A DNA stretch of 20,000 nucleotides from an uncultured virus (IMG/VR IMGVR_UViG_3300005823_000001) (IMGVR_UViG_3300005823_000001); one strand, 5' to 3'; counted from the first letter of the stretch, positions 1 to 17,300 are shown. The notes: a model not told the origin generated them from the sequence alone. A program made the numbers and translations.

Positions 1-668
1 GCTTTACCAGCTAGCACATTCGGTGTCGCCGGTAGCTTAGGTTTCACAGCAGCTACACCCTCTGGTACTTCGCGCCGGTTACCAGTAGGTACGATAGTCC
101 AGCTAGTCTGTAGGCCCTGGCCACGGCGCTCTATCTCGTAGTCCTGTAGGGTTAGGTCGCCATCTTTGCGATAGCAGGCAACAAGGTCTTGCCATAGGGA
201 TTGGCCCTGGCCGAATCCTCTCTGCCAGAACACAGGCCCATTGACTATCTGCTTGAACACTACCTCATTGGTAGACGCTATGCGTACCTTCTTCCAGGCC
301 TGATCCGGATTCTTCTCTGCGTCTGGATTCTGATTATGCCGGTATATTTGATACACCCAGCACCAGATACCAAACTGCTCAGCCCGTCGCTCACCGTTAT
401 CGCATAGGTCGCACTCTAGGTCATCCGTACCAGGACACCATCTAGGTACTTTCCATATGTCGCCGGACTGGACAGTGATTTCTACCTGGTGAAAATAGGC
501 AGTACCGAAATGGGGATCGTCCTCATGGCCGGTAGCCATAAAACGGACTATAGCCCGCTCATAAGGGCCAAGACGTAGCAACGGCACCTGAGGCCGGAAG
601 CTACCTTGTGCGGGCTCTTTGGCTTGGCGCTCCAATATCGACCGTATTCCTGGGTACTTCTTAGGCAT
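1..668 (-). CDS. T4 gp32-like Zn-binding single-stranded DNA-binding protein (3' end runs off the window; not in the supplied ORF track)
   Basis: Manual translation from ATG at 668 is open to the window edge: MPKKYPGIRSILERQ...AIVRFM...YFHQV...RWCPGTDDLECDLCDNG...DYEIERRGQGLQTSWTIVP. The H...C-x7-C-x2-C pattern and the 'I.R.G.GL.T.W.I.P' segment resemble phage gp32-like SSBs. It lies downstream of primase/helicase and overlaps the upstream gene by 8 nt. Confidence 0.75.
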   Translation of the reverse strand, partial: MPKKYPGIRSILERQAKEPAQGSFRPQVPLLRLGPYERAIVRFMATGHEDDPHFGTAYFHQVEITVQSGDIWKVPRWCPGTDDLECDLCDNGERRAEQFGIWCWVYQIYRHNQNPDAEKNPDQAWKKVRIASTNEVVFKQIVNGPVFWQRGFGQGQSLWQDLVACYRKDGDLTLQDYEIERRGQGLQTSWTIVPTGNRREVPEGVAAVKPKLPATPNVLAGK

Positions 669-1008
669 CAGTGCAAACCCTCCTCTTAACTAGCTCCTGC
701 CTTATCTCTCGTAACGTGGTATCAGGTAGTATATTAGCATCTATCAACTTACAGGCTATTCGCTCCTTATAAGAATCTAACGCGCGTCTATTGATGCATA
801 GGCGTCTCGCTAAAGCTTGAACACTAACGCCGCTGAGTATACAGCAGAGGAAGACAAGCTCCGTTTGCGTAAGGCTCTCTGTAACTTGGACATAGCATTC
901 TACATCTGCTAGCTCTACTGCCTCAACGCGAAACTCCACTATACGTCTTTCAGGATTTCTATAATGAGCAAGGTAGTCATCTAGTGAGAAGCAGAATATG
1001 GCATACAA
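661..1008 (-). CDS. HTH DNA-binding protein, sigma-70 region 4 / LuxR-like
   Basis: TTG start with AGGAGG (1015-1020) 6 nt upstream. LTQTELVFLCCILSGVSVQALARRLCINRRALDSYKERIACKL fits the region-4/LuxR HTH pattern (L[ST]xxE...G.S..[EA][IL]A..L.[IV]...[TA][VL]......I..KL). Confidence 0.7.
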   Translation of the reverse strand: MYAIFCFSLDDYLAHYRNPERRIVEFRVEAVELADVECYVQVTESLTQTELVFLCCILSGVSVQALARRLCINRRALDSYKERIACKLIDANILPDTTLREIRQELVKRRVCTDA

Positions 1009-1078
1009 TCCATACCTCCTGGTGGAGCCTACCTACGTTATTCAGTTGTAACGGCGGTATTCGATATACACCTCCTGT

Positions 1079-1127
1079 CCCTCCATTTTAATTATGGCGA
1101 AGTTGACGGGCTCTCGCCGCCAATTTT
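1079..1127 (-). promoter_or_regulatory. Bipartite promoter-like motif, copy A (AAAATTGGCGGCGA-N17-CATAATTAAAATGGAGGG)
   Basis: Matches copy B (9825-9873) at 14/14 and 17/18 nt in two blocks separated by an unconserved 17-nt spacer. CATAAT -10 at 1091-1096. It overlaps the primase 3' end and points into the HTH gene. Confidence 0.75.
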
Positions 1128-2047
1128 AGGCTAAAATGGCATCTTTTTTCAAGAACGTCCTTGACCATGTACGGCGGACACTCCTGTATATCTTTGAATC
1201 CTAACGGCAATTCTACTACGCTGGTGTAGGCCTCAAACCGCCGATAGCACATTTCCTCTAGCCGGAGGCCCGCGCTATCAGCATCGAAACACAGTATAAT
1301 CTCGCTTGGGCCTAGGCCCTGCACCCAAGCCGTCTGCCATTCACTCATATCTGAGCCTAAGATGGCTAGGGCTGGCCCCCAATGCTCCCATACCCAAATG
1401 CAGTCAAGCGCACCCTCTACTAACACCACGGCCTCAGGATTGCGCTCTATTCTGTCCATCCCGAATAAGTGCATGGCCCGCTGGAATCCCTTAGTATATA
1501 GATACTTGTGTGGGCTGCTAGGGCCAAACCTCTTGATAACAGCTACCCGCCGCCGGTCATCATCGTAAACTGGTATGACTATAGCCTTGTCATTAGCATC
1601 ATAACCTATACCCCAGCGTTTAATCATCGCCGGTGTATACCCGCGCTCCAGAAACCAACGAGGCACCACGTCAAAACGGAAGTCAGTGTCCTGGGGTAGG
1701 TTTTGCGGCAGAGGAGGCCTCTGGGCCACCAGGGAGCCGCTGGTGGGCAATTTGCGTAAAGTTTCCAGCAGGATCGCGGGCTCAACCGGCACGGCCTCGC
1801 TGAACATATCCACCTCAGCCGCTAGACGAGATTTTCCTAGCTTAGTCGCTAGTGTAAGCAGGTTCCCTCGCCCGCAACCGGAAAAGCATATCCATAGGCC
1901 CGTCTTTAGGTTAATACCAAAGCTAGGGTTGCTGTCCTCATGGAATGGACAGTGTGTATACATCTGGCCCTCACCGGTTATCTGGCCCACTATACCCCAG
2001 GAGCGCAATACCCGCGCTACGTCTACCTCCATACCCTCAAAGTTCAT
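1088..2047 (-). CDS. dnaG: DnaG-type DNA primase (CHC2 zinc finger + TOPRIM)
   Basis: CPFHEDSNPSF...WICFSGCG zinc finger; VLVEGALDCI and LCFDADSAG TOPRIM motifs; GFKDIQE. ATGA overlap with the helicase stop. Confidence 0.93.
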   Translation of the reverse strand: MNFEGMEVDVARVLRSWGIVGQITGEGQMYTHCPFHEDSNPSFGINLKTGLWICFSGCGRGNLLTLATKLGKSRLAAEVDMFSEAVPVEPAILLETLRKLPTSGSLVAQRPPLPQNLPQDTDFRFDVVPRWFLERGYTPAMIKRWGIGYDANDKAIVIPVYDDDRRRVAVIKRFGPSSPHKYLYTKGFQRAMHLFGMDRIERNPEAVVLVEGALDCIWVWEHWGPALAILGSDMSEWQTAWVQGLGPSEIILCFDADSAGLRLEEMCYRRFEAYTSVVELPLGFKDIQECPPYMVKDVLEKRCHFSLKLAARARQLRHN

Positions 2048-3273
2048 CCTATCTCCCTAATGATTCCCTTATCTACTTCCCATGCTAGCGTTTTGCTATC
2101 TGTGATGGCCATGCCTCGCCTATTCTTTTCCATACGGTATATTAATTGGCTCTCTTCATTTAGCCGCCTAGCTAGACCGATAACCTTGTCGCAGGCATGA
2201 GCAAAGCCCTGGCCAAAAGCACACTGATTTATCTTAGGGATTCTATCTGGACGCACATCGCGGGTAGCCTGGTCGCTAAGTATGATAACTAAGTTATACG
2301 CTTCTGCCATACTCTTGAGGCTGTAGCTAATATCCCTTACCTGCTCCCATACCTTGTCACCGGCACCGCCACTTATCATAAAGCCTAGGCCATCTATAAG
2401 TACTAGGTCGGGCTTATGCTCACGTACCAGCTTACGCACCGCATTAAAATCCAGGTTGATATCCTCTACGTGGTCTACTGTGAGCCAATCCTCACGTTTT
2501 GCCATACGGCTCAGAAGTTTCTTATAGGCCTCCTCATCTATAGGATGGCCCTGCTGTAGGGCTAAATTGCTTATCTCCATACCGCTCTGGCCTGCCAAGA
2601 GTGTATCTACTCGTAGCTCAAGGTCACGGGCTGCCATCTCTGGCGATACAAATAGGACACGAGAGCCACCACGCCAAGCAGTTACGCCAAAATAGCAGAG
2701 TAACCACGTCTTGCCTATGCCGGTAGCAGATACAACACCTACTAGCTCACCATCCTGCCATCCTACTCCTGTAGCATCTATACTCAACAGGCCAGTGGGT
2801 ATACCCTTTACCATGAGCGCTCGTCTTCTATTCAGAGCCCTGGCCCTGTAATCTCCTAGGCGTTCTATAGCACCAGCGTCCGTCTTGCTTGCATGGCCCT
2901 CGTCAACCGTAACACCTATATCTGATAAGTCCATTCGTAAGCCCTGTATGGCTCCTACAGGGTCATCTTTCAATCTAGGTATATGTTTCTCTAATGATGC
3001 AGCCGCTTTACGGTAGGCGTCCTGGTCTATAAACCGCTTAAGCCAATATGGAAAGTCATCTTTCCTATTCCAGGCGTAATCAGGGAATTGAGCATTTAAT
3101 ACATCGACACCTGGTATCTCTAGCTGTTTCTCGTAATAACCACATATGAATTCTACTACGGTCTTGAGCCGCGTGAATCGCTCCGGCTGCACACCGGCCC
3201 GTAACATGATAGCTAGCTCATCCGGTGTAGTAAGAGAGCATATAAGGTTTTGTTCTGTAGCTAAATCTGGCAT
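2044..3273 (-). CDS. dnaB: DnaB/SF4 replicative helicase
   Basis: GIPTGLLSID, Walker A SATGIGKT, VLFVSPEM, Walker B VLIDGL, LSDQATR, KNRRG. Adjacent to the primase. Confidence 0.92.
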   Translation of the reverse strand: MPDLATEQNLICSLTTPDELAIMLRAGVQPERFTRLKTVVEFICGYYEKQLEIPGVDVLNAQFPDYAWNRKDDFPYWLKRFIDQDAYRKAAASLEKHIPRLKDDPVGAIQGLRMDLSDIGVTVDEGHASKTDAGAIERLGDYRARALNRRRALMVKGIPTGLLSIDATGVGWQDGELVGVVSATGIGKTWLLCYFGVTAWRGGSRVLFVSPEMAARDLELRVDTLLAGQSGMEISNLALQQGHPIDEEAYKKLLSRMAKREDWLTVDHVEDINLDFNAVRKLVREHKPDLVLIDGLGFMISGGAGDKVWEQVRDISYSLKSMAEAYNLVIILSDQATRDVRPDRIPKINQCAFGQGFAHACDKVIGLARRLNEESQLIYRMEKNRRGMAITDSKTLAWEVDKGIIREIG

Positions 3274-3722
3274 AACTCATCACACATATCTGCAAGGGTG
3301 GCTCGCGCTCCGGTTAGGTTAGCAGGATGGCCCCAGCTATAGGCTGCATCTATCTCATCATATCTAATAATAGTATCTCTAAGCTCTCTGTCTTTGGTTA
3401 CATACAGGAGGTAATAGGCCTTAGCTAGGAGCTTATCATGGAATACCTCGTCTTGTATATCCTCAGAGAGCCAACCGGCTACGCTCCTGATAGACGGGTC
3501 AGCCCAGCTATGGACATGTTGTATAATAGCGTAGCCGATTTGGTAGGCATCAAACCTAGATAATAACGACGAGAGCAGAGCCGTTTCTATTGCTCTGCTC
3601 TCGCCCTGGTACGATTTGCGGTATATGTTTTTGTACCACCAGGCCCACAGTTGCCACAGCAGAGTAGGAGTAGTTAGGTTGAGTAGCTTGCTGCGGCTAC
3701 CCTGTAGACTACTTGGTGCCAT
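3261..3722 (-). CDS. Hypothetical helical protein (possible helicase loader or replication accessory)
   Basis: 153-aa ORF with a purine-rich upstream sequence (GGGAAGGTAGGA), overlapping the helicase start. Function is inferred from position only. Confidence 0.65.
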   Translation of the reverse strand: MAPSSLQGSRSKLLNLTTPTLLWQLWAWWYKNIYRKSYQGESRAIETALLSSLLSRFDAYQIGYAIIQHVHSWADPSIRSVAGWLSEDIQDEVFHDKLLAKAYYLLYVTKDRELRDTIIRYDEIDAAYSWGHPANLTGARATLADMCDELCQI

Positions 3723-3754
3723 TCCTACCTTCCCATGTCCTATCAGAATATCGT

Positions 3755-4885
3755 CTACTCGCTAGCGGCCTTCTTAGCTCGCCGCTTCCGCTTGGGCTTA
3801 GGGGCTTCCTCTACCGGCTCCGGCTCCTCCACTACCGTAGCCTCAGCGTCTATGACCGGCTCCTGGTCGCCGTCTTCCTCCACAATGGCTACCTGGTGGC
3901 AAGTAGGGCAAGAAGTAAGGTGGCCCAGGAAGTGACCAGCTAGCCGCTGCATACGGTAGACCTTGAAAGCCCATCCAAAGTCATCACGGCCCATAGAGGT
4001 GTGGCTTGCCACGTAGGTCATGTGCTGTAGCAAGTCGTATACGGTCTGAGGTGGCTCCTCTGTGACGAGCTTCATAATGGCCCGCCGTTGCGGTACTTGG
4101 TGCTGAGCTAGGAGCCGGTCAAAATTGTCTAGGACTCCCTCTTCCAATGGCGTCTCAGCACTCCGCTGTACGTCGGCTAGCAGATGGTCGGCACCACTCC
4201 ATACCTTACGCATCTGCCGCCTAGCCCAATGGTACGTGCCTCTGGCCCTGGCGTCATCATCATCGCCCTCGCCATCGCCAGAACGTCGCCACCTCCGGCC
4301 TCTGTGCTCGGCGCTTATCATGCCATTGGTACACCGGAGCCGGTAGGCCACAAGCTCGATGGTCAAGGCCTGAAAGCCAATAAGAGAGCCTGACACCTGG
4401 ATGCCTACCCGCGTGATGTCACCAACAGATACAGCCGTCTCTCGCGACCCTAGGCCCACGAAAGAGAAATGCTTAAGCGTCTTGGTATTGGCCAGCCAGT
4501 CTACCGGCTGTATGGCCCTATCCAAAGACTCGATAAGCTCCTCAGGTCGGTAGGGCTCCAGCGCCGTAGTGCTAGCCTCTACGACACGGCCCTCCGATGG
4601 CTCTACCAGGATGTTGAATGGCTGGCCCGCCTCAGCTAGGCAAGTCAGTTGGTGCCGGTAGTGAGGCAACACAAGCTCGTTAGGTAGCCCGTTGAAGTAA
4701 TCGCTAGGCACCGGCAGAGCGGCCCCTATAGCCTGGATGTTGCCTAGGTTGAGCGGCACCCTCGCCTGGTCAGCTAGCTTGATACGGCGGCCCCGCGTAT
4801 CGAATTCGATACTAGCAGGGTCTACGGTATGCAAGTTGCTCTGGCTAAGTGGTGCGAACACCTGCAATACGTCTTCCTTATTCAC
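3755..4885 (-). CDS. DUF932-like phage protein with C-terminal CxxC and acidic/basic tail
   Basis: YRLRCTNGMI matches the RxxCxNG signature of the DUF932 family. GTGA overlap with the SNF2 stop. Confidence 0.7.
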   Translation of the reverse strand: MNKEDVLQVFAPLSQSNLHTVDPASIEFDTRGRRIKLADQARVPLNLGNIQAIGAALPVPSDYFNGLPNELVLPHYRHQLTCLAEAGQPFNILVEPSEGRVVEASTTALEPYRPEELIESLDRAIQPVDWLANTKTLKHFSFVGLGSRETAVSVGDITRVGIQVSGSLIGFQALTIELVAYRLRCTNGMISAEHRGRRWRRSGDGEGDDDDARARGTYHWARRQMRKVWSGADHLLADVQRSAETPLEEGVLDNFDRLLAQHQVPQRRAIMKLVTEEPPQTVYDLLQHMTYVASHTSMGRDDFGWAFKVYRMQRLAGHFLGHLTSCPTCHQVAIVEEDGDQEPVIDAEATVVEEPEPVEEAPKPKRKRRAKKAASE

Positions 4886-6516
4886 TTATACCCCCTTGCT
4901 AAGGCGATCATGTCGCCTATGCTAAGCTTACGCTGCCTTACCTCGTCTACTCCTGCCAAGAAATCACTAGCTAGCCGTAACTTCTTGTACAGAATAGTCC
5001 AGATATACTCGTCTATAGTGTCTCCTCCCTTCAGATTGATTACGTTAACTGTCTTATCTTGGCCAATACGATGTAGCCGGTCTTCCCTTTGGGCTAGCTT
5101 GGCTGGATTCCAAGGGTAATCATAGTGTATCACATAATCAGCCATCGTGAGATTAATACCATAGGCACCCACCTCAGTCATGACCAGATAAGGACATGGG
5201 CTGCTCTCAAAGCTATCTAGTATATCAGACCGTGTTTCCATCTTTGTCTTACCTGTTACTATAAGGCAATCTAACCTCTCCTGAATAGCCCTGGCTACCT
5301 CGGCGTACTGTGTGAATATGACTACCCGATGGCCACGGCCTATCTCCTCAAGTATATTCTGTAGCTCATTCAACTTACTCGTACCGGCCCCATCTACCAA
5401 TAGTGGTGGATAGTCCACTAGTTGCTTTAGCCGCGTCAGCTTAGCTAGGATATTAGGCATCGTCTCACGGTCTATGGTGTGCACCCAAGATACGAAATCC
5501 CTTACGGCCCTGTTGTACTCCTGGCGCTCCCTGTAGCTAAGCTCCACTATGTAATCCTGTACTATCTTGGCCGGTAGCTGGGGCTCAACGTCGGCCTTGA
5601 GCCGTCGTAGGAAATACGGCGCTACCTTTATCTGCACCTCTTCTAGGCCCCTGTAGCCGGTCGTCTTGCCCCATAAATCTTTAATACAATGCTGTTCTAC
5701 GAATAGCCATCCTGGGCCTAGGAGTGTTGGCTGTACGAATTCCATGATACTATGTAGCTCTTCCAAGGTATTCTCTATTGGCTGGCCAGACATGGCAATA
5801 GCGTACTTGCACTGTAAGCGCTTAAGCCGTTTGGTGGTCTGAGCCCTATAGTTCTTTACCCTGGTGGCCTCGTCAGCCACTATACAACCCCACTTGTAGG
5901 GCATGATATCTGCATCATGTAAAAGAAGCTCGTAATTAGCTATCTTAATCTTGGGCTCGGCCTTGGCCCAAGACTCCCGCCGGTCAGCCTTGCTGCCGGT
6001 GATGATTTCACAGCCCATACGGGCTGTATGCTTGTGTATCTCCCTCTCCCAATTCACCTTTACAGAGGCCGGACACAGGACTAAGGTACTACTCGGCTCC
6101 CATGCCATTATAGCAGCGATGGCTTGAATGGTTTTGCCTAGGCCCATCTCATCTGCTAGTAACACCCGCTTACCTTCTGTTACAAACTTAGCCCCTACTC
6201 GCTGGAATGGCCGGAGTGTACTTATCATGCCTGGTGTCTCGAATTCGGCATCTTCTAGGTCGCGAGTAGCCAACTGGCGCTCTGTTAGCCGCCTCTGGTG
6301 GCTCAGGAAGACGGTAAGAACCTCCTCGTAGGCCCAAGTGTAGCCCCGCTGTCTGAGGACACCCTCAAGACGCTTCAGTTGGCCTAGAGGGAATTCCCAA
6401 CGCTTATGGCGAGGATTCCACCGGCGGCCTGGTATAGTCCTGTAGGCCTCAACGAGGCCTAGGTCAAAAGGCGATACCGCCGTAAGGTTCTTACCGTCTA
6501 GGCTGAGTACTATCAC
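4882..6516 (-). CDS. SNF2-family helicase/ATPase with N-terminal HARP-like domain (SMARCAL1-like)
   Basis: LRPFQ, LLADEMGLGKT, LCPASVKVNW, VADEAT, SGQPIEN, RRLKADV, GINLT, WNP...QREDRLHRIGQ. N-terminal IPGRRWNPRHKRWEFP is HARP-like. Confidence 0.92.
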   Translation of the reverse strand: MIVLSLDGKNLTAVSPFDLGLVEAYRTIPGRRWNPRHKRWEFPLGQLKRLEGVLRQRGYTWAYEEVLTVFLSHQRRLTERQLATRDLEDAEFETPGMISTLRPFQRVGAKFVTEGKRVLLADEMGLGKTIQAIAAIMAWEPSSTLVLCPASVKVNWEREIHKHTARMGCEIITGSKADRRESWAKAEPKIKIANYELLLHDADIMPYKWGCIVADEATRVKNYRAQTTKRLKRLQCKYAIAMSGQPIENTLEELHSIMEFVQPTLLGPGWLFVEQHCIKDLWGKTTGYRGLEEVQIKVAPYFLRRLKADVEPQLPAKIVQDYIVELSYRERQEYNRAVRDFVSWVHTIDRETMPNILAKLTRLKQLVDYPPLLVDGAGTSKLNELQNILEEIGRGHRVVIFTQYAEVARAIQERLDCLIVTGKTKMETRSDILDSFESSPCPYLVMTEVGAYGINLTMADYVIHYDYPWNPAKLAQREDRLHRIGQDKTVNVINLKGGDTIDEYIWTILYKKLRLASDFLAGVDEVRQRKLSIGDMIALARGYK

Positions 6517-6818
6517 TATTTGGTAGCCGCCTTTTGTCTTCTATATGCTGCCCAACACGCCTGTAGCCACATTTGCTCAGGCCCGCTAATCATAATCCCT
6601 GGTAATCCTACTATCCCTCGCGCATCTATTTTCACTATGCGACAATTTTCCCATCCTGCATCGCCACCATAGACAAGTAGTAAACCATCCTGGCATATCG
6701 CTATCCACTGTTCGCCATGCTCATTCTCATAGTAGCTGGCGAATTCTGCTTTGTTTGCGTCTATCTCCGGTGGCGAACCACAACCCTCTACATGCTTATT
6801 ATCAGCCTTGAACAGCAC
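6516..6818 (-). CDS. Hypothetical protein
   Basis: GTG start with AGGAGGT RBS (6823-6829). TAGTG coupling to the SNF2 gene. Confidence 0.8.
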   Translation of the reverse strand: MLFKADNKHVEGCGSPPEIDANKAEFASYYENEHGEQWIAICQDGLLLVYGGDAGWENCRIVKIDARGIVGLPGIMISGPEQMWLQACWAAYRRQKAATK

Positions 6819-6827
6819 AGCTACCTC

Positions 6828-7703
6828 CTATAGCTCAAGCGTTTGCAGATGTGTACGGAATTGCGCTGTAGCTCTTTCCTCTTCGGCATCTACCTCCCAT
6901 AGGGCTTCATAGTCAAGTATCCCGTTAGCCCTTTCTATAAAGACTCTGGCTTGCTCGTCTCGTAGCGCTTCCCATTGGAATGTACCAGGCCGCTCAGGGT
7001 TTTCAGGTATGTCGTACTCTACCTCATGGCCTGGATTGAGACCTATGCGCTCAAAGTCTATATCATCCCTGGCCCTGGCTACTAGTGCATCGCTACAGTT
7101 GTATTCGCCTTTAATCAGGCCCAGCGTCCATACATAGATGTCCCGCCAAGCAGAATAGGGTATCTCCATACCCTTAGGGTCATAGTCGCCGTAGTAGAAG
7201 ATTTTGATAGGCTTCTGATGGAGGATATACCGACGGGCTAGGCGCTCAGCCGCTTTCCACTTCTCCGGTATAGAAATGTCGCCGTGAAAAGCAAGTAGGC
7301 TGATATTGCCATCCGCGTAATGGTCGAATTGGGCAGACATAGCAGAGGCCTCAAACCAACACTCCGTGTATACCGGTTGCTTTTGCCATCGGTCTATAGC
7401 ACAGTGGCTCCGCTCCTGTAGGGCTCGCAGCCATTCAGCAGGATTGGTATAGCCGCCACCGCGTACTACAGCAGCACGGCTATCATCGGCTAGGGTAGCC
7501 GGATGCCAACCGTTATAGAATTCCTTACGGGCTTTGGATAGAAGGCCAAGCAAGTGCTTGTATCCGGCCTTCTCGCTGTAGAGCCCTTCCTGTAACAGCC
7601 GGTAGAATACCCACCTAGCTGTTACCTGATAGGGCACCGAATCGACATAGCCTTTGGCCATATCTATAATGACCTTGTTCCTAGCAGCAGGTGTATAGGT
7701 CAC
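6828..7703 (-). CDS. Winged-helix + TOPRIM (Topo VI-A/JetD-like) protein
   Basis: QVTARWVFYRL, DRWQKQPVYTECWFE, YYGDYDPKGMEI, FERIGLN and WEAL follow the W..QP..VEVW.EK / D.DPSG..I / RIAL / ELDAL pattern of this phage family. Confidence 0.75.
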   Translation of the reverse strand: MTYTPAARNKVIIDMAKGYVDSVPYQVTARWVFYRLLQEGLYSEKAGYKHLLGLLSKARKEFYNGWHPATLADDSRAAVVRGGGYTNPAEWLRALQERSHCAIDRWQKQPVYTECWFEASAMSAQFDHYADGNISLLAFHGDISIPEKWKAAERLARRYILHQKPIKIFYYGDYDPKGMEIPYSAWRDIYVWTLGLIKGEYNCSDALVARARDDIDFERIGLNPGHEVEYDIPENPERPGTFQWEALRDEQARVFIERANGILDYEALWEVDAEEERATAQFRTHLQTLEL

Positions 7704-7911
7704 TGTGCGTTCCTCCTAGCATCTCTACAGCGGCCCTCATTAGCCGCCTACGAGACTTAAAGCCTACGCTCCTGGGGTTATCTGTCTTAGTTACAGGCCT
7801 ACCATCTAGCCAACCGTGATGATAGGCCCTATGCCCAGGATGCGGGCTACTACGCAGCATAATCAACGTATGCCCTTTGAGCGGCCCGTATGGTATCTTG
7901 CTGTTTGCCAT
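7681..7911 (-). CDS. Small basic hypothetical protein
   Basis: ATG immediately after the upstream TAG. Fills the gap in a tightly packed operon. Confidence 0.65.
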   Translation of the reverse strand: MANSKIPYGPLKGHTLIMLRSSPHPGHRAYHHGWLDGRPVTKTDNPRSVGFKSRRRLMRAAVEMLGGTHSDLYTCC

Positions 7912-7912
7912 C

Positions 7913-8206
7913 CTAGAACCTTCTGGCTATGTGAATGGCCCCTAGCAGGTAATTCCATACCTCACGGATAGTCATGTTGATGGCCACTACCTGCATGTCA
8001 TCCGGTATCGGTAGTGCGTGTTGGAATACGTGCGATATAGCCTCTGTAGGCTGCTGGTTAATACGCCGCCATATGGAATAACGTATTGCGCCGTTCTCCT
8101 TTTTACGCCATATAGCAAAGTAGTTGTAGCCGATCTGGTCGTATAGCTCGTGGCAAGCATCGCCCAAGCTCTTGTCGGTTACCCTCTGCCGGTGCGGAAT
8201 CGTCAT
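7913..8206 (-). CDS. Hypothetical protein
   Basis: ATG 2 nt after the upstream stop, with AGGAGG upstream. Confidence 0.75.
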   Translation of the reverse strand: MTIPHRQRVTDKSLGDACHELYDQIGYNYFAIWRKKENGAIRYSIWRRINQQPTEAISHVFQHALPIPDDMQVVAINMTIREVWNYLLGAIHIARRF

Positions 8207-8208
8207 AG

Positions 8209-8610
8209 CTACTTGGCCTCCTGGTGGCTCTCCCTGACATGCGCCATAAGGTCATCAAGGTCATCGTATAGCTCTTCACACGCAGGACAGGCATACGGCG
8301 CTACTGCCATTAGCTCTAGGTCGCAATCGTCATTACACTTCTGACCGTCCGGCTCCTCACCTCGCAGATAGAAGGTGTCACACGCGGTACACTTGTAGCC
8401 CTCTATATGACGGATGAGGTAGAGAGTCTCGCCTATAGCGAGTACGAAGCCATCACCCTCTGTAATTGTGATGGACTTAAGAGCACGGCCTATCTTTTCG
8501 GCTACCCCATAGGCATCAATGTAAGCTAGGCCATTGAGGGGAGTATCTTCTAGCTCACTAGCTGCTACCCTAAGCGCCTTGCTTAGCTTGACGGCGGTAT
8601 TCGGGTGCAT
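8209..8610 (-). CDS. Zinc-finger protein (CxxC...CxxxC plus C2H2)
   Basis: The likely start is ATG 8610 (GGAGGT at 8615-8620) rather than 8637. C-terminal YACPACEELYDDLDDLMAHVRESH is a C2H2 finger; also CTAC and CNDDC. Confidence 0.75.
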   Translation of the reverse strand: MHPNTAVKLSKALRVAASELEDTPLNGLAYIDAYGVAEKIGRALKSITITEGDGFVLAIGETLYLIRHIEGYKCTACDTFYLRGEEPDGQKCNDDCDLELMAVAPYACPACEELYDDLDDLMAHVRESHQEAK

Positions 8611-8786
8611 CCGTACCTCCAACTCTTCATACCACATACCGTGCAGATAACCTTCTCACGGTTATGCTCAGGAAGGACACCTGCTACCTTTTCGCCGGTC
8701 AGCTTCCAGGTATGCTTCATACCATCCTTAGCACAGGAGAAGTCATCAGCCGTTGCCTGCCTAGCAAACTCAATACGGCTATTCAT
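8583..8786 (-). CDS. Small putative zinc-ribbon protein
   Basis: ATG 8786 is coupled to the upstream stop (TAATG). MNSRIEF...SCAKDGMKHTW...ICTVCG. Confidence 0.6.
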   Translation of the reverse strand: MNSRIEFARQATADDFSCAKDGMKHTWKLTGEKVAGVLPEHNREKVICTVCGMKSWRYGCTRIPPSS

Positions 8787-9274
8787 TACGCGCCTGCCTG
8801 CTCTAGCTGGTCTACCAAGTCCCACCTAGCCCAAACGAGCATAGGCCGATTCGTGTACCCTTGTAGCTCTGTCCACCGCATCTGTGACTCGGACGCTGTA
8901 CGGACTAGAGCCGGTACACCATCGTCATCGGCCCGCCATGAGTAGTACTTAGTAGGCTCTCCTGGCTTCTGGTAGTAAGAGTCCATTGGCTTCCTAGGGT
9001 TACCAGCAGGGAAGGTTGCCTGTATGATGTGCCCTGCGGTATTCCATGCTATCTGGTCGGCCTTGTACGATGGCTGGTCATCGCACCCTACAACCGCATG
9101 TAGCTTGTAAACGTAGGTCTTTCGCCTACTTGTGCGCTCCGGCTGTGTGCCACCATCACGTAGGCAACCATGGTTCTTGCCATTACAGCTACACCGGCAG
9201 ATATCCTCTCTGGCATGCCAGCAAGCGTCCCCACAAGTATGTGCGTACATCAGCGCTTCTGTAATAGGATTCAC
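8786..9274 (-). CDS. Cys-rich phage protein (CxxxCxxAxxxxCxCxCxGxNHG), first gene of the early operon
   Basis: GTG start with AGGAGGT RBS (9278-9284). TCGDACWHAREDICRCSCNGKNHG. Directly downstream of the leftward sigma-70 promoter. Confidence 0.8.
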   Translation of the reverse strand: MNPITEALMYAHTCGDACWHAREDICRCSCNGKNHGCLRDGGTQPERTSRRKTYVYKLHAVVGCDDQPSYKADQIAWNTAGHIIQATFPAGNPRKPMDSYYQKPGEPTKYYSWRADDDGVPALVRTASESQMRWTELQGYTNRPMLVWARWDLVDQLEQAGA

Positions 9275-9311
9275 GTTACCTCCTAGCTGCTATATCCTAC
9301 TCGCTACAGAT

Positions 9312-9340
9312 ATTATCCTCCACTTTACCCCACAAGTCAA
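9312..9340 (-). promoter_or_regulatory. Leftward sigma70/sigmaA-type promoter
   Basis: TTGACT (9340-9335)-17 nt-GATAAT (9317-9312), with A-rich upstream sequence. Confidence 0.85.
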
Positions 9341-9389
9341 GTTTTTCCTCTGTACGAGTGGATTTTTCTTCCAAATTTCTTTTGGCTGT

Positions 9390-9830
9390 ATCCTCTATCT
9401 CATGCTTGAGGGTACAATGGCCCCCTAGGAAAGAGGGTCACTGTACACCAGCTTGAGGTATACAATCCGGTGCTTTCAACCGGACGGCCTTATCTCCATA
9501 TCTCAGCTGAGGAATTGTCTCGTTTCCGATGGAGTGCTGCCCAGGTCTGCCATTACCAGCTATTCAGCCGTGGCCTCAACAGGACGGCTTCTACCCGTAG
9601 GCGACTAGATAGTGTCTGGGGTGTCCAGGTCAGTTACTCACGTAGCCCCTGGCTCCCTGGCCTAAGGGATACCGAATCCTACGGTCTACCGGTAAACCGG
9701 CTCATTATGTCAGCTAGCATCGGCCAAGCTAGCTTGATAGGGAGAGGCGGCCCCGCCGCTAACCGCCTCTCCCCTAACCAGGAGGTAACGGAGGGTATAT
9801 GGGGGTGCGGCCACTTCATCCATGCCCTCC
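9390..9830 (-). ncRNA. Putative structured non-coding RNA or long structured leader (family unrecognised)
   Basis: About 10 adjacent stem-loops fill a region lacking a credible long gene. The first hairpin begins 7 nt downstream of the CATAAT of motif copy B. The strand is inferred from the promoter; G-U pair polarity is mixed. Confidence 0.55.
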
Positions 9831-9873
9831 ATTCTAATTATGACAGGTTTTGCAGCCGGTCGCCGCCAATTTT
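9825..9873 (-). promoter_or_regulatory. Bipartite promoter-like motif, copy B (AAAATTGGCGGCGA-N17-CATAATTAGAATGGAGGG)
   Basis: Near-identical to copy A in both blocks. Also an extended -10 (TGtCATAAT, 9845-9837). Lies back-to-back with the rightward promoter. Confidence 0.75.
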
Positions 9874-9883
9874 GGAGAAAGAT

Positions 9884-9912
9884 TTGACTTTTCTTGCGAG
9901 GTGAGGCATAAT
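9884..9912 (+). promoter_or_regulatory. Rightward sigma70/sigmaA-type promoter 1
   Basis: TTGACT (9884-9889)-17 nt-CATAAT (9907-9912), followed by GTGAGG and ATG 9932. Confidence 0.85.
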
Positions 9913-9931
9913 ATATGGTGAGGGTAGTTAT

Positions 9932-10210
9932 ATGGTGCTACAAATGACTAGGGAGCGTAAGCGGAAAAGGGGTACTCCTAAGGGTACACGGCTATCTCGT
10001 GCTCATCGTGATGCTATAAGTCGCGGTATGAAACGTAATAAGCAATTTATGGAGGCAATACAAGGCCCGCGTAATGACGATTGGCGAGCTAAGATAGCTG
10101 CATCCTCACAAGTGAATAAGGATGAAAACCCTAAGGAATGGGAGCGCTTATACAAGCGTCACCTGGCCCGCCTCCGGCTCCTACGGCTTGCTGAGGAGCA
10201 GGCTAACTAA
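9932..10210 (+). CDS. Small basic protein with NUMOD3-like motifs
   Basis: KGTRLSRAHRDAISRGMK and PRNDDWRAKIAAS resemble NUMOD3 (G...S.E.R.KIS..MK). Has its own promoter and RBS. Confidence 0.7.
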   Translation: MVLQMTRERKRKRGTPKGTRLSRAHRDAISRGMKRNKQFMEAIQGPRNDDWRAKIAASSQVNKDENPKEWERLYKRHLARLRLLRLAEEQAN

Positions 10211-10246
10211 ATACGATAGTCTATCGCGTTTCTCCTTTCTGGTGTT

Positions 10247-10285
10247 AAGTGGCCTAGTTGGTCGAGCTAGGCCACTTGACTTTTC
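10247..10285 (+). terminator. 11-bp perfect hairpin, possible intrinsic terminator or operator overlapping the next -35
   Basis: AAGTGGCCTAG (10247-10257) / CTAGGCCACTT (10267-10277), followed by GACTTTT. Confidence 0.5.
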
Positions 10286-10304
10286 CGGTGAAGTCCATCA
10301 TAAT
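10276..10304 (+). promoter_or_regulatory. Rightward sigma70/sigmaA-type promoter 2
   Basis: TTGACT (10276-10281)-17 nt-CATAAT (10299-10304), followed by a GGAGGTG RBS. Confidence 0.85.
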
Positions 10305-10326
10305 ATAAATCGGAGGTGAACACTAT

Positions 10327-10518
10327 ATGAGAATGATGTGGAATAGTGGTTTTGAAACCGGCCCCAGCCCAGGCCCCACTCGTATCAAGGTAGCTAAAGG
10401 CAAAGTGCCTATACTCCAAGCTACTGTGCTAACGGATGATGATATATGGGACACCATTTGGTCATCCGGCCCGCGTAATATCTGGATAGTGCATAACCCA
10501 CATCCTAAGTGGGGATAG
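10327..10518 (+). CDS. Small hypothetical protein
   Basis: GGAGGTG RBS (10312-10318), ATG 10327, directly downstream of promoter 2. Confidence 0.7.
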   Translation: MRMMWNSGFETGPSPGPTRIKVAKGKVPILQATVLTDDDIWDTIWSSGPRNIWIVHNPHPKWG

Positions 10519-10526
10519 GAGATAGC

Positions 10527-10994
10527 ATGAAAAAGAAGGAAGCTATAGAGGCCCTCCGGCAAGCTGAGCGCCGGTTGAGAGCCATCAAAGATGAGCAGGA
10601 TAGCCTTAGCTATGAGCATGATGGGATGTGGGAGACTATCTACCGGTGCTTTGACGCCATAGAGGGTGCCGGTCAACCGGCCCGTTTCCTTACTGAAGAG
10701 GGAATGGTATTAGCCAGAGAGCTAGCCCGTCATCCTCAGGATGGCCGCATAGACCTTAAGGCCCTGGCCGCAAAGCTTACACCTGAACAATGGAAGGCTG
10801 TAACCCGTACTGAGCGGGTATTCGATGAAGGTCGCCTCAATAAGGCGGTCGAAAAGGGTATAGTGCCTCTCGCGCTAGTAGAGGGCTCTGTCCTCAGTAA
10901 GGCACCGGTGCCACGTCGCATACATAAGACGTGTACCAAAGATGAGGCTGAGCAGCTACAGTCTCAAGGCCGCCTGCTGCGAATCGTAGCTTAG
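10527..10994 (+). CDS. Hypothetical phage protein (N-terminal coiled coil)
   Basis: The likely start is ATG 10527 with AGGAGA (10517-10522). Protein-like composition. Confidence 0.75.
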   Translation: MKKKEAIEALRQAERRLRAIKDEQDSLSYEHDGMWETIYRCFDAIEGAGQPARFLTEEGMVLARELARHPQDGRIDLKALAAKLTPEQWKAVTRTERVFDEGRLNKAVEKGIVPLALVEGSVLSKAPVPRRIHKTCTKDEAEQLQSQGRLLRIVA

Positions 10995-14300: not shown

Positions 14301-17300
14301 TCACCTCGTTACCGGCTGTAGCAACTTAAGCTCGCCTATAGCCCCTAAGTTCTCCTCGCCCTCATCCATGCGCTTTACATCGTACTTATACGGCTCAGGC
14401 CGCCTATTCCAAGCCAATAGAGGGTTAGTATCAGAATCGCTAATAGCGACATGCGCTACGGTAGCGCTCTGTTTAGTTACACCTCCAATAGCGCCACTGT
14501 CTTTCTCTATAAGAACATCATCAGCTATGGCTGTTTCACGTACAGTAGCTTTAAGCAGCCAGGTGCTTATATCCGTACCGTCGGGGAAGGTTACACGTAT
14601 AATAACGTCACATCCTTGATAGAATTCAATATCTGTCTCTACTGCCACATCTACACCTCCTACTATGTCTATATACTTTTCGATAGTGGCTTGTATGTCT
14701 ATGATTAGACCAGGTAGTGTAGCCCGTACCGTTAGACTGCCTACGCCAGCTAGAGCGGCAGAGCCCTTATAAGCGACGGCTGCTGCTGCCGACGCCTCAC
14801 CAATACCGGCCAAGGTAGCACTACCCTTAAGGATGCTGATAGCAATAGCGCTAACGTCGCCAACACCGGCCAATGTAGCTGAGCTACGACGTACCGCTCT
14901 ACCATCTGCTGTAAGGGCTCCGACACCGGCCAAGGTAGCAGAGCCTACCTTTTCCACCTTGCCTATAACAGATACATTGCCTACACCAGCTAGGGTGGCT
15001 CGGCCATACACCTCGCCGCCTACAGTACCAAGGGCTGATAGGTTTCCTATACCGGCTAGTGTAGCAGCCCCTACTAGGCCCATTATAGCATGAGCTTGCA
15101 AATCTCCCGCACCGGCCAATGTAGCTGAGGCTAAGCGTACACAGGCACCGGCCCCTGACAAGGCCCCTACACCCGCTAAGGTAGCGCTTCCTAGGGTTAT
15201 AACTCCACCTGATACACTAACTGTACCTACACCGGCTAGGGTAGCGGCCCCTGGACGTACAAGACCACTACTAGCGGTACACCCACCTACACCGGCTAAC
15301 GTAGCTATGCCAACATGCTCAACGGTAGCTGAACAGGTAAGGCCACCTGCGCCAGCTAAGGTGGCTTGGCCATATACCTCAGCACCTACAGTGCCAAGGG
15401 CTGATAGGTCGCCTATACCGGCCAGCGTACCTGAGCCCGCAAGGGTAGCAGATCCGCTAGCGCTCAAATCACCTATACCGACTAAGGTAGCAGAGCCGCT
15501 AGTTATCCGGCTACCCGTAGCAGATAAGGTTCCTACACCTGCTAGAGTGACTGTACCTGCCCTTGTTACGTTAGCAGCACATGTAAGCGCTCCGGCCCCA
15601 GCTAGGGTAGCTGAGCCCGTTACTATCGCTTGAATAACGGTAGCGGAAGCAGATAGGTTACCTATACCAACGAGTGTAGCTGAGCCTATCCGTTCTACGC
15701 TGGCACTACAAGTAAGGCCACCTATTCCTGCTAGGGTAGCTGAGCCTGTTACTATCGCCTGAGTGACAGTAGCTAAAGCAGTTAGACTGCCTATACCTGC
15801 TAGCGTAGCCGAACCTGCCCTTATTACGCTGGCATTACAAGCAAATGCTCCAACCCCAGCAAGTGTAGCTGAGCCTGTTCGTTCCACACCGGCGCTAGCT
15901 GATAGGTTGCCTACACCCGCTATAGTAGCGGCCCCTGGCCTGATAACACCACCACTAACAGATAAGGTTCCTATGCCAGCTAAGACGCCTGCACCCGTAG
16001 CCTCTATAGTAGCGCTACATGCGCAATCACCCACACCTGCTAACGTAGCTGTACCATATACCTCAGCACCTACAGTACCTAAGCAAGATAGGTCACCTAT
16101 ACCGGCTAGAGTGGCTGTGCCAGTACGTTCGATAGTGGCACTACAGGTAAGAGAACCTACACCAGCTAAGGTAGCAGAAGTGCCACGTATAACAGTGGCG
16201 TTAGCTGAGCAATCGCCTATACCTGCTAGTGTGGCTGAACCTGAACGTATAACGCCGCCACTAGCAGATACATTACCAATACCGGCCAGTGTAGCAGCCC
16301 CTGGCTTAGTTAAGCCACCACTACACGTAAGGGCTCCAACTCCAGATAGCGTAGCTGAGCCTGTCGCTTCCTTAGCAGCGCTACAAGCAAGAGAGCCTAC
16401 ACCAGCTAGGGTAGCTGAGCCATATACTTCAGCACCAACAGTAGCTAAGGCAGATAAGTTTCCTACACCAGCCAGTGTAGCTGAACCTATAGCCTCAATG
16501 CTAGCGCTACAAGTGAGATTGCCTACACCGGCGAGCGTAGCTGAGCCTGGACGTATCAGGCCAGCAGCAATAGATAAGCCACCAGCACCAGCTAGGGTAG
16601 CTGCTCCTGGCCTTACTAAGCCGCCACTACAAGTAAGATTAGCTACACCGGCTAAGGTGGCTGTACCATATACTATTGCCTGGATGACAGTAGCACTACA
16701 AGATAGAGTGCCAACGCCTGCCAGCGTAGCTGAGCCGGTACGTTCTACGCCGCCTAAGGCAGATAAAGTACCTATACCAGCTAACGTAGCTGCACCTGGC
16801 CTAGTAATGCTTGCGCTACAGGTAAGGCTGCCTATGCCAGCCAAAGTAGCTGTGCCGTATACTATTGCTTGAATGACACTAGCTGAACAAGTAAGGCCAC
16901 CAACACCCGCTAATGTAGCAGAGCCCCCTAATATTCTTGTAGCTGCGATAGATAGGTCGCCAACACCGGCTAGTGTAGCTGCGCCTACCGCTTCTTTTGC
17001 AGCTACACAAGTAAGGTTACCGGCTCCTGCTAATGCGGCTGAACCTATACGCTCTACACCGGCGCTACAACTCAAATCACCCGCACCAGCTAGGGTGGCG
17101 CTACCTGGCCTTACTAGGCCGCCACTACAAGTAAGGCCGCCTATTCCTGCTAATGTAGCTGAGCCGATACGCTCAATACCGGCGCTAACAGATAGGTCGC
17201 CTACTCCAGCTAGGGTAGCTGAGCCGGTGCGCTCAACGCTAGCACTACAAGTAAGGTTACCGGCTCCCGCTATAGTAGCTGAGCCACCTAGACGCCTAGT

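Follow-up and report, generated by a model that had tools for sequence, protein, structure and literature searches.

The window analysed here is a stretch of 20,000 nucleotides (nt) from the uncultured virus IMGVR_UViG_3300005823_000001, part of a 66.7-kb contig from sequencing runs of marine-sediment and subsurface DNA in three studies. Its gene content, seen through open reading frames (ORFs) and family scans, reads as that of a tailed phage: a leftward arm of early and replication genes encodes an SNF2 helicase, DnaB, a DnaG primase, a helix-turn-helix (HTH) protein and a protein resembling single-stranded-DNA-binding protein (SSB), and the window also holds a short rightward arm and genes for lysis and tail. 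Our subject is the HTH gene together with a gene-free region (9275 to 9931), in which no ORF among those scanned has a family match. An initial annotation had linked the two into a protein-RNA switch: the HTH protein would activate its own gene and a structured RNA of undescribed type, and this RNA would silence the HTH gene at its ribosome site. We find that the RNA is very probably a divergent EGFOA-type RNA (Rfam RF02955), as sequence motifs and covariation indicate, that its putative promoter belongs to a class shared with the HTH gene, and that its leader carries an anti-Shine-Dalgarno (anti-SD) segment with a better partner than the HTH gene. The predicted RNA has the following parts.

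9404 to 9833, minus strand: predicted EGFOA-type non-coding RNA of about 430 nt, both ends being predictions, with no terminator listed before the next gene
9787 to 9833, minus strand: 5' hairpin, in which 9833-9825 pairs with 9795-9787; its arms resemble those of the HTH leader
9740 to 9774, minus strand: strong hairpin of the 5' extension, from folding
9616 to 9620, minus strand: pseudoknot-1 strand CCCAG, complementary to CUGGG of the loop
9580 to 9587, minus strand: pseudoknot-2 strand CCGUCCU-G (CCGUCCUG), whose last base covaries with the loop and forms a G-C pair here
9536 to 9560, minus strand: EGFOA core hairpin, a 4-bp stem with a conserved 17-nt loop (9556-9540), from Rfam (17.4 bits) and comparison
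9404 to 9452, minus strand: 3' hairpin with a G-rich arm, then CUCAAGC, several homologues ending similarly

On either strand the region 9385-9833 folds better than its shuffled versions (z -3.35 and -3.36; 0 of 100 shuffles). Folding energy being alike on the two, and GNRA-capped hairpins (three minus, two plus) leaving the strand undecided, we place the RNA on the minus strand because the EGFOA motifs lie there; the annotated structured RNA, minus strand and starting near 9833, is borne out to this extent. An Rfam scan over 10 kb (600-10600, E up to 5) gave no match, and a scan of 561 nt (9330-9890) gave EGFOA RF02955 as the best match, at 9560-9536 (17.4 bits, E 0.98). The window loop is identical to that of locus L177, and the closing stem and both pseudoknot strands are present in the order usual for the family, neither CCCAG nor CCGUCCU having belonged to the pattern used in the loop search. 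CCCAG followed by CCGU-n-CUG is found in 1 of 496 windows of 160 nt drawn from the 20-kb sequence. In every one of 18 sequences, the window and 17 homologues picked because they have the upstream element, the final base of CCGUCCU-N forms a pair with the loop base preceding AGAC (G-C in 10, A-U in 4 and C-G in 4). For the stem and pseudoknot 1, 95.9% of the cells of a 15-sequence alignment are paired, with 16 two-sided changes, which none of 500 shuffles equalled and for which slid partners gave 21-43%. A profile of the 17 homologues recovers the window at E 1.5e-6, the best match in 788 kb of control loci having E 34. The window unit as a whole (9873-9404) has the size of homologous units and ends in a hairpin like theirs, which CUCAAGC follows. 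The loop, the stem, both pseudoknot strands and the best Rfam match thus speak against the claim that the RNA is undescribed: EGFOA is a known orphan family, and the structured region is, on its sequence, a divergent variant rather than a new structure.

CUCAAGC occurs twice, on either side of the 3' hairpin (9404-9410 and 9451-9457), and L127, L135, L147, L175 and L207 have related heptamers after their 3' hairpins; the heptamer is possibly a protein site or an element end. Within the 5' extension, 9727-9756 resembles 4772-4796 in a gene for a 376-aa protein, on the same strand (13 and 11 nt around a 5-nt gap, E 0.23).

Upstream of the RNA lies one of two copies of a promoter-like motif, and the window has three canonical promoters besides.

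1079 to 1127, minus strand: promoter-like motif, copy 1, which overlaps the C-terminal end of the primase gene and its stop
9825 to 9873, minus strand: promoter-like motif, copy 2, with a 14-nt block in place of the -35 box, a 17-nt spacer, an extended -10 and a conserved start region
9312 to 9340, minus strand: canonical early promoter TTGACT-17-GATAAT (promoter scan), whose transcript would be without the anti-SD segment
9884 to 9912, plus strand: canonical promoter, divergent from the RNA (promoter scan)
10276 to 10304, plus strand: canonical promoter (promoter scan)

That the same non-canonical motif precedes both the HTH gene and the structured region stands as annotated. The two copies agree at 37 of 49 nt (76%; blastn E 3e-5), and on the minus strand they agree by blocks: 14/14 in a block ending CGGCGA, 6/17 in the spacer and 17/18 in CATAAT with the start region. 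Blocks and spacer differ in conservation with a Fisher p of 4e-6, the flanks of the two copies are unrelated, and the second block has 2 matches at three or fewer mismatches where 0.02 are expected; no third copy of either block occurs in the 20 kb. From the 14-nt block to CATAAT there are 17 nt, the spacing also of the three TTGACT-17-(C/G)ATAAT promoters (9340 minus, 9884 plus, 10276 plus). Copy 1 lies inside the last 13 primase codons. Past the -10, the two predicted transcripts start with similar sequence and have the arms of a 5' hairpin in common. We infer from the block-wise conservation a trace of selection on a bipartite promoter, and the motif is quite probably a promoter. That it requires a phage factor has a chance just short of even. 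Copy 2 has an extended -10, TG-n-CATAAT (9845-9837, with CATAAT at 9842-9837), and could function without any -35 factor; copy 1 lacks the TG.

Relative to the EGFOA loop the motif extends from -316 to -268. In four phage homologues, sigma-70 promoters of the TTGACA/TTGACT type start 243-324 nt before the loop, with -35 boxes at -324, -311, -296 and -243. The EGFOA promoters of phages G002 and G008 are sigma-70-like and resemble other promoters of their own phage, so that sharing a promoter class is usual for EGFOA; the unusual feature of the window RNA promoter is its missing canonical -35. The motif is absent from the 21 other EGFOA sequences examined. Readings of the motif as a sigma-54 or MerR-type promoter were rejected by eye, for wrong spacing and a missing consensus.

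The anti-SD segment and its two principal candidate targets are placed as follows.

9776 to 9790, minus strand: anti-SD segment, between two strong hairpins, defined by complementarity
9274 to 9288, minus strand: ribosome site of gene 9274 with the first base of its start, the best partner of the segment (15 bp)
8786 to 9274, minus strand: first early gene, "gene 9274", 162 aa with a Cys/His-rich N-terminus, no family matched
1013 to 1023, minus strand: HTH ribosome site, an 11-nt complement of 9787-9777

As first annotated, 9787-9777 is the exact complement of 1023-1013. The specificity claimed for the HTH gene did not survive: the overlapping 9790-9776 pairs without a break over 15 positions with the gene 9274 site (two of them G-U; 11 Watson-Crick), against 11 for the HTH gene, and three more early genes can pair over 9-11 bp (gene 6818 with 11, genes 8206 and 7703 with 9 each, as has the HTH leader frame). 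Of 24 start regions, at least one attains 11 Watson-Crick pairs in 117 of 3000 shuffles and in 64 of 742 real windows, a background of 4-9%. Two start regions at 11 nt or more are rarer (5 of 3000 shuffles); the named targets are matched in 63 (HTH) and 57 (gene 9274) of 20000 shuffles and never both together, and the 15-bp helix with gene 9274 was not reached in 400. That the extended HTH duplex (-33.7 kcal/mol) is special is not supported: 2 of 60 shuffles reach its energy, as do 3 of 14 if all start regions are allowed. Within the window, 9800-9768 has its best non-self duplex with the HTH start region, whose seed duplex (-19.2 kcal/mol) compares with opening costs of 3.4 and 5.5 kcal/mol. 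A third 11-nt complement joins 9607-9597, in the linker between the pseudoknot strands, to 19972-19982, before the first ATG of an ORF of 1887 aa that is open beyond the window edge and of uncertain start; such matches therefore recur.

Predicted structure around the segment depends on the length folded. In a 5' fragment it forms a small hairpin whose loop contains UCCU, longer folds give it various internal partners, and in the predicted 9833-9230 transcript it pairs with the gene 9274 site at a probability of 0.96-1.0, the scan listing no terminator between the RNA and that gene. No 11-nt match covering the Shine-Dalgarno core was found at 21 other EGFOA loci. The segment appears to be a lineage-specific and moderately non-random trait, better fitted to gene 9274 than to the HTH gene. 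That it is functional at all is possible and on balance doubtful; that HTH mRNA is a real target is quite unlikely.

The HTH gene shares its predicted transcript with the SSB-like gene and follows the primase gene.

661 to 1008, minus strand: 115-aa stand-alone HTH protein of LuxR/NarL type (sigma-4 clan), with a TTG start, from profile and fold matches
1042 to 1086, minus strand: HTH leader with a 14-codon upstream frame in the HTH register, closed by two stops; its arms are like those of the RNA 5' hairpin
3 to 668, minus strand: SSB-like gene after the HTH gene, extending past the window edge (PHROG SSB families, best E 3e-5)
1088 to 2047, minus strand: DnaG-type primase gene, whose 3' end contains motif copy 1 (family scans)

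The annotated TTG start at 1008 is confirmed, 6 nt past AGGAGG and coincident with the start of P0003, a distant homologue (34% identical); that it is weak is a presumption. The description of the protein as region-4-like was right at the level of the clan. The HTH protein matches Pfam GerE (PF00196) with 17.6 bits (E 0.003; cut-off 23.5 bits) and EvgA at E 6e-5 with a two-sequence profile, and in the ESM Atlas it matches phage clusters labelled Sigma70_r4_2/GerE at 0.92. Two structure models were obtained, both of low confidence (pLDDT 56 and 55), and neither had a Foldseek match at E 0.001. The second resembles EvgA (Z 9.0, root-mean-square deviation 3.0, 81 residues aligned), NarL (8.2), SigK (7.8) and sigma-E region 4 (7.4). 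LuxR/NarL-type would be the better label, in a near tie: EvgA and NarL come slightly ahead of sigma region 4 and within about 1 Z of it. The modelled protein shares the four-helix HTH of the LuxR/NarL C-terminal domain (EvgA, NarL, GerE) and of sigma-70 region 4, and differs from these proteins in having no receiver, ligand or sigma-2 domain and in scoring below all curated cut-offs. A Pfam search (E up to 1) found neither sigma-2 nor Sigma70_r4 in the protein, and alignment is confined to the HTH part; the searches gave no sign of membership in the sigma-70 family.

P0002 and P0003 were the sole other sequences found in searches with the HTH protein, and 12 other EGFOA phage records (two fetched in part) held no homologue. 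P0002, an ENA protein, reads the HTH leader through both stops as a single frame. It stems from one 2-kb contig and differs at five codons and by an unlike end, and an independent contig from another study retains the stops, with 0 differences over 541-1149; the read-through is for these reasons probably a sequence error. By analogy with T4 middle promoters and their MotA, the HTH protein is a plausible candidate reader of the motif. That it is the phage factor in question is nevertheless unlikely, and the remaining ~46 kb of the contig may encode another activator or sigma factor that would be a better candidate.

The explanation that we hold, as a whole, to be on balance the probable one joins an EGFOA RNA gene, a shared promoter class and a lineage-specific anti-SD leader. 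The gene-free stretch would be a self-contained EGFOA gene, in which a promoter at 9873-9825 gives a transcript of ~430 nt that has a double-pseudoknot core and ends in a 3' hairpin. A promoter of this class would also drive the HTH-SSB unit; because of this common class, the RNA would probably be made together with the replication (middle) genes and not with the early genes of the TTGACT promoter. An activator or an alternative sigma factor would most likely bind the 14-nt block that stands in for the -35, the RNA promoter being probably factor-dependent. The core would most likely resemble other EGFOA RNAs in its workings: a folded RNA that binds a protein or associates with itself, and that mobile DNA carries as an accessory cassette. 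Any use of the anti-SD segment would most likely be in cis, with gene 9274 as the likeliest target: read-through from the upstream promoter would hide the ribosome site of this gene, and transcripts from the early promoter (9340) would leave it free.

A number of points weigh against this explanation. The Rfam score of 17.4 bits lies far under the gathering cut-off of 37.7 and covers model positions 71-95 of 108; four more loci with an EGFOA loop also score below the cut-off. The profile match and model R1 are partly circular, because the homologues were fetched with a loop pattern derived from the window and R1 includes the window, and the 18 covariation sequences were selected for the upstream element. 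From the CCGUCCU strand to the stem there are 19 nt in the window versus 28-68 in the 17 homologues. Constrained folds on the three-way junction of the Rfam consensus (an 8-bp closing helix with a side hairpin) give shifting and weak closing helices, and this junction seems reduced or absent in the window RNA. As to the leader, the anti-SD targets were chosen post hoc, other stretches of the RNA compete for the segment depending on where the 3' end is set, and none of 12 other EGFOA loci pairs its own next gene beyond shuffles (best 5 of 40). A role of the EGFOA core in conflict between phage and host is argued from neighbourhood, and three phages have EGFOA after the large terminase instead.

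How far the regulatory parts should be believed depends on three competing accounts. The feedback switch of the initial annotation, in which the HTH protein binds the block, activates itself, SSB and the RNA, and is silenced in trans by the RNA as a timer, draws on the motif common to both units, on an HTH gene of LuxR/sigma-4 fold at the end of the early operon, on the rarity of the HTH match in shuffles (63/20000, and 0/20000 jointly with gene 9274), on the favourable seed energetics with the HTH start region as best non-self partner, and on the loop-exposed UCCU of the 5' fragment. Gene 9274, however, pairs longer; the match centres on the Shine-Dalgarno consensus; 11-nt matches and comparable duplex energies arise in controls (117/3000 and 64/742; 2/60 and 3/14); and other EGFOA phages lack the HTH gene (0 of 12 records, two in part) as other EGFOA sequences lack the motif (0 of 21). 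LuxR-type proteins usually bind inverted repeats, as dimers, whereas the 14-nt block is not palindromic. We regard this switch as possible in principle and highly improbable. A wider wiring, in which an HTH activator turns on itself, SSB and the RNA while the leader shuts off gene 9274 in cis and the HTH and early genes in trans, is slightly less so and still very unlikely; searches on EGFOA/RF02955 or related phrases found no description of such wiring. The anti-SD complementarity might be incidental, the segment being a C/U-rich linker, part 3' arm of the 5' hairpin and part internal strand, in a plain EGFOA gene with the same promoter class. This has close to an even prospect: it accords with the 4-9% background, with the third 11-nt match upstream of the ORF at 19964, with alternative cis partners at 9653-9646 (probability up to 0.98) and with the lack of the trait at the other EGFOA loci compared, yet it leaves the paired matches (5/3000) and the adjacent 15-bp helix (0/400) to chance, and the two best partners are the neighbouring gene and the one that has the motif in common with the RNA. 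The motif, for its part, could be an ordinary host promoter, with an extended -10 and a weak -35, spread by local duplication of promoter and leader; no phage activator would be needed and the HTH protein would act otherwise. TG-n-CATAAT in copy 2, the hairpin arms shared by both leaders and the sigma-70-like EGFOA promoters that G002 and G008 share with other genes agree with this account, but copy 1 is without TG, and 14 identical bases exactly 17 nt before the -10, next to a diverged spacer, point to a sequence that is read (p 4e-6). We consider it rather unlikely.

Two further accounts concern the RNA itself. EGFOA might be a catalytic or self-spreading element, a ribozyme or the RNA or single-stranded DNA substrate of a recombinase, with no bearing on gene regulation; this is the main rival to a conflict-cassette role and itself improbable rather than negligible. 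An invariant double-pseudoknot core, a circularly permuted copy (L146) and repeated ~0.5-kb units between accessory genes would suit it; against it, no recombinase or reverse transcriptase is shared among 118 neighbours at 21 loci, and the intact transcripts reported after hours in magnesium, in the accessible part of a preprint cited below, are weak evidence against self-cleavage of those constructs. A phage replication origin, or its primer RNA, would explain a gene-free region between divergent promoters at a turn of cumulative GC skew, with a G-rich 3' hairpin; the skew turn, however, tracks the switch of coding strand, homologues lie after terL, in defence islands and in three copies within one chromosome region, and the phage has its own primase, all of which makes an origin scarcely credible. 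An EGFOA RNA gene with a shared promoter class and a lineage-specific leader thus remains the reading we prefer.

This RNA resembles other EGFOA RNAs in its 17-nt loop, closing stem, order of CCCAG and CCGUCCU and covarying pseudoknot pair, as well as in its large gene-free region, own promoter ~300 nt before the loop and 3' hairpin. It differs in its score (17.4 versus 37.7 bits), reduced junction helices, promoter without a canonical -35 and long hairpin-rich 5' extension, whose anti-SD segment was not seen at 21 other loci. Structured phage RNAs that head operons are also known in the P1/P7 c4 antisense RNA (PMC12197685) and the P4 CI RNA (PMC4825925), which, in the accessible parts of these sources, have short complementarity to a downstream site, around the ribosome site in the case of c4. 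The window RNA differs from them in its 430 nt with an EGFOA core, in a single antisense element and in a context where no antirepressor or immunity function was seen; Rfam gave no c4/CI family match (600-10600, E up to 5; 9330-9890, E up to 10). An exposed antisense element of the c4/CI type has its complement here, with an exposure that varies with the fold and a chance of 4-9% for any start region. By analogy, the window RNA may work like the c4/CI RNAs without being a member of their family.

For the promoter, the nearest likeness is with activated phage promoters. Mu Mor and C, lambda CII and RinA-type proteins are among the phage promoter activators; a literature search on the RinA type found no paper. 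At T4 middle promoters, according to the accessible part of one source, MotA binds at -30, replacing the -35 contact, together with AsiA (PMC2988021). Like MotA/Mor-type middle promoters, the window motif combines a normal -10 with a private conserved block (-43 to -30 here, two copies seen), and a candidate small activator gene lies at the end of the early operon. Unlike them, it has as candidate a LuxR/NarL-type HTH protein without a match to these activators (Pfam, PHROGs, NCBIfam), and the motif stands upstream of the candidate's own gene.

The homologues show how EGFOA is distributed. The loop pattern fetched 7 viral loci, 5 of which pass the EGFOA cut-off, and 20 genome loci, with 4 passing among the 15 scanned; a looser pattern gave 65 viral loci. 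Among 67 distinct loop matches, 16 have the 4-bp stem and the CCGU-n-CU element, 6 the stem only, 2 the element only and 43 neither. Two copies in the bacterial genome G014 are 94% identical over -310 to +181 relative to the loop and differ in their flanks, and a second pair has -285 to +155 in common; the full unit would accordingly measure ~0.5 kb and include its own promoter. EGFOA is present in 4 of 67 genomes of one family, an accessory, cassette-like spread. In G018, three same-strand units of ~0.5 kb lie within 12 kb (L250:12175, L251:1219 and L251:5115), separated by ABC-3C, Rep3/T5orf172 and PD-(D/E)XK genes, and a type I restriction locus precedes them; G014, G017 and G035 have two copies each, and one copy is upstream of a CBASS-type operon. 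The neighbours are nonetheless mixed (118 proteins, 21 loci), comprising tail and small early genes and tubulin-like, TnpB-like, Mrr, CBASS-type and ABC-3C proteins. In three phages (L173, L190 and L184; EGFOA loop at 5019, minus strand) EGFOA comes directly after a large terminase gene of gpA type and has a sigma-70 promoter of its own, and in L173 a portal gene lies downstream. As a guess from these neighbourhoods, the core might act in phage-host conflict, which we rate as rather doubtful.

At L146 (5001-5120, plus strand) the element is circularly permuted: the loop hairpin comes first, then CCCAG at 5092 and CCGUUCUA at 5113, with the covarying A-U pair kept and a TTGACT promoter ~100 nt upstream. 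Another rearranged variant is found in the actinophage-like G007 (L205/L224, loop 53716-53740, minus strand), which has CCCAG 20 nt upstream and again downstream; the standard CCGUCCU strand is absent from this locus.

The first description of EGFOA is reportedly that of Weinberg et al. in 2017, an attribution that is unconfirmed, the main text (PMC5737381) being without that name. In the accessible part of a preprint (bioRxiv 10.64898/2026.07.01.735769), EGFOA RNAs are putative small RNAs of unusually large intergenic regions that fold, with trimer and dimer structures solved by cryo-EM, and complete transcripts were purified after hours in magnesium. Literature searches on EGFOA/RF02955 gave no further relevant paper, and no function is described in print. 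For a family with solved structures and no known function, the window copy offers a concrete handle: it has its promoter class in common with a regulator-SSB unit, and its added leader, directed at ribosome sites, has two named targets. Four family-level facts were not found in print, the 2017 supplement being outside the search: the second covarying pseudoknot pair, the ~0.5-kb unit with its own promoter, the circularly permuted copy and the repeated copies between defence genes. If the wider wiring were true, it would be a first regulatory role for EGFOA and a translational lock dependent on promoter choice; should the switch prove false, what remains is a further divergent EGFOA in a phage.

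The phage stands apart in the databases. Its DnaB has best GenBank matches of 25% identity, IMG/VR scans with the HTH protein, P0003, their alignment, DnaB and the motif were all empty, and the 376-aa protein has homologues only within its own cluster. A metagenome scan with the motif gave at least 118 loci, none like the window by blastn or tblastx among the matches listed. Three DNA matches to GenBank phages were judged to be chance, and G007, a candidate by tblastx likeness, was set aside after a protein comparison with two marginal matches (E ~0.04). No relative combining the HTH gene, the motif and the RNA was found in the searches made. Four DNA runs differ at three positions, all outside the RNA, so that no strain covariation could be used for it; among the 9 runs listed as carrying phage sequence there is no RNA run. 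The window has no tRNA or tmRNA, and no hint of a lysogenic cycle was seen in it. A plus-strand ORF of 144 aa (9470-9904) has no Pfam or NCBIfam match.

Three other observations concern the rest of the window. The 1887-aa protein (14301-19964, minus strand) contains ~40 repeats of 20-23 residues each around G-x-A-T-L-A-G-x-G-x-L and is probably a tail or virion fibre. A toprim-like protein of 291 aa in the early arm (6828-7703, minus strand) matches a PHROG topoisomerase family at E 5e-22 and, weakly, JetD/DUF2220 at E 2e-4. The cassette of promoter and ribosome site at 9279-9342 recurs in a second context, on contigs of runs X7, X8 and X9, with one difference at 9309; we read it as a repeated early promoter, located elsewhere in this phage or in a related one.

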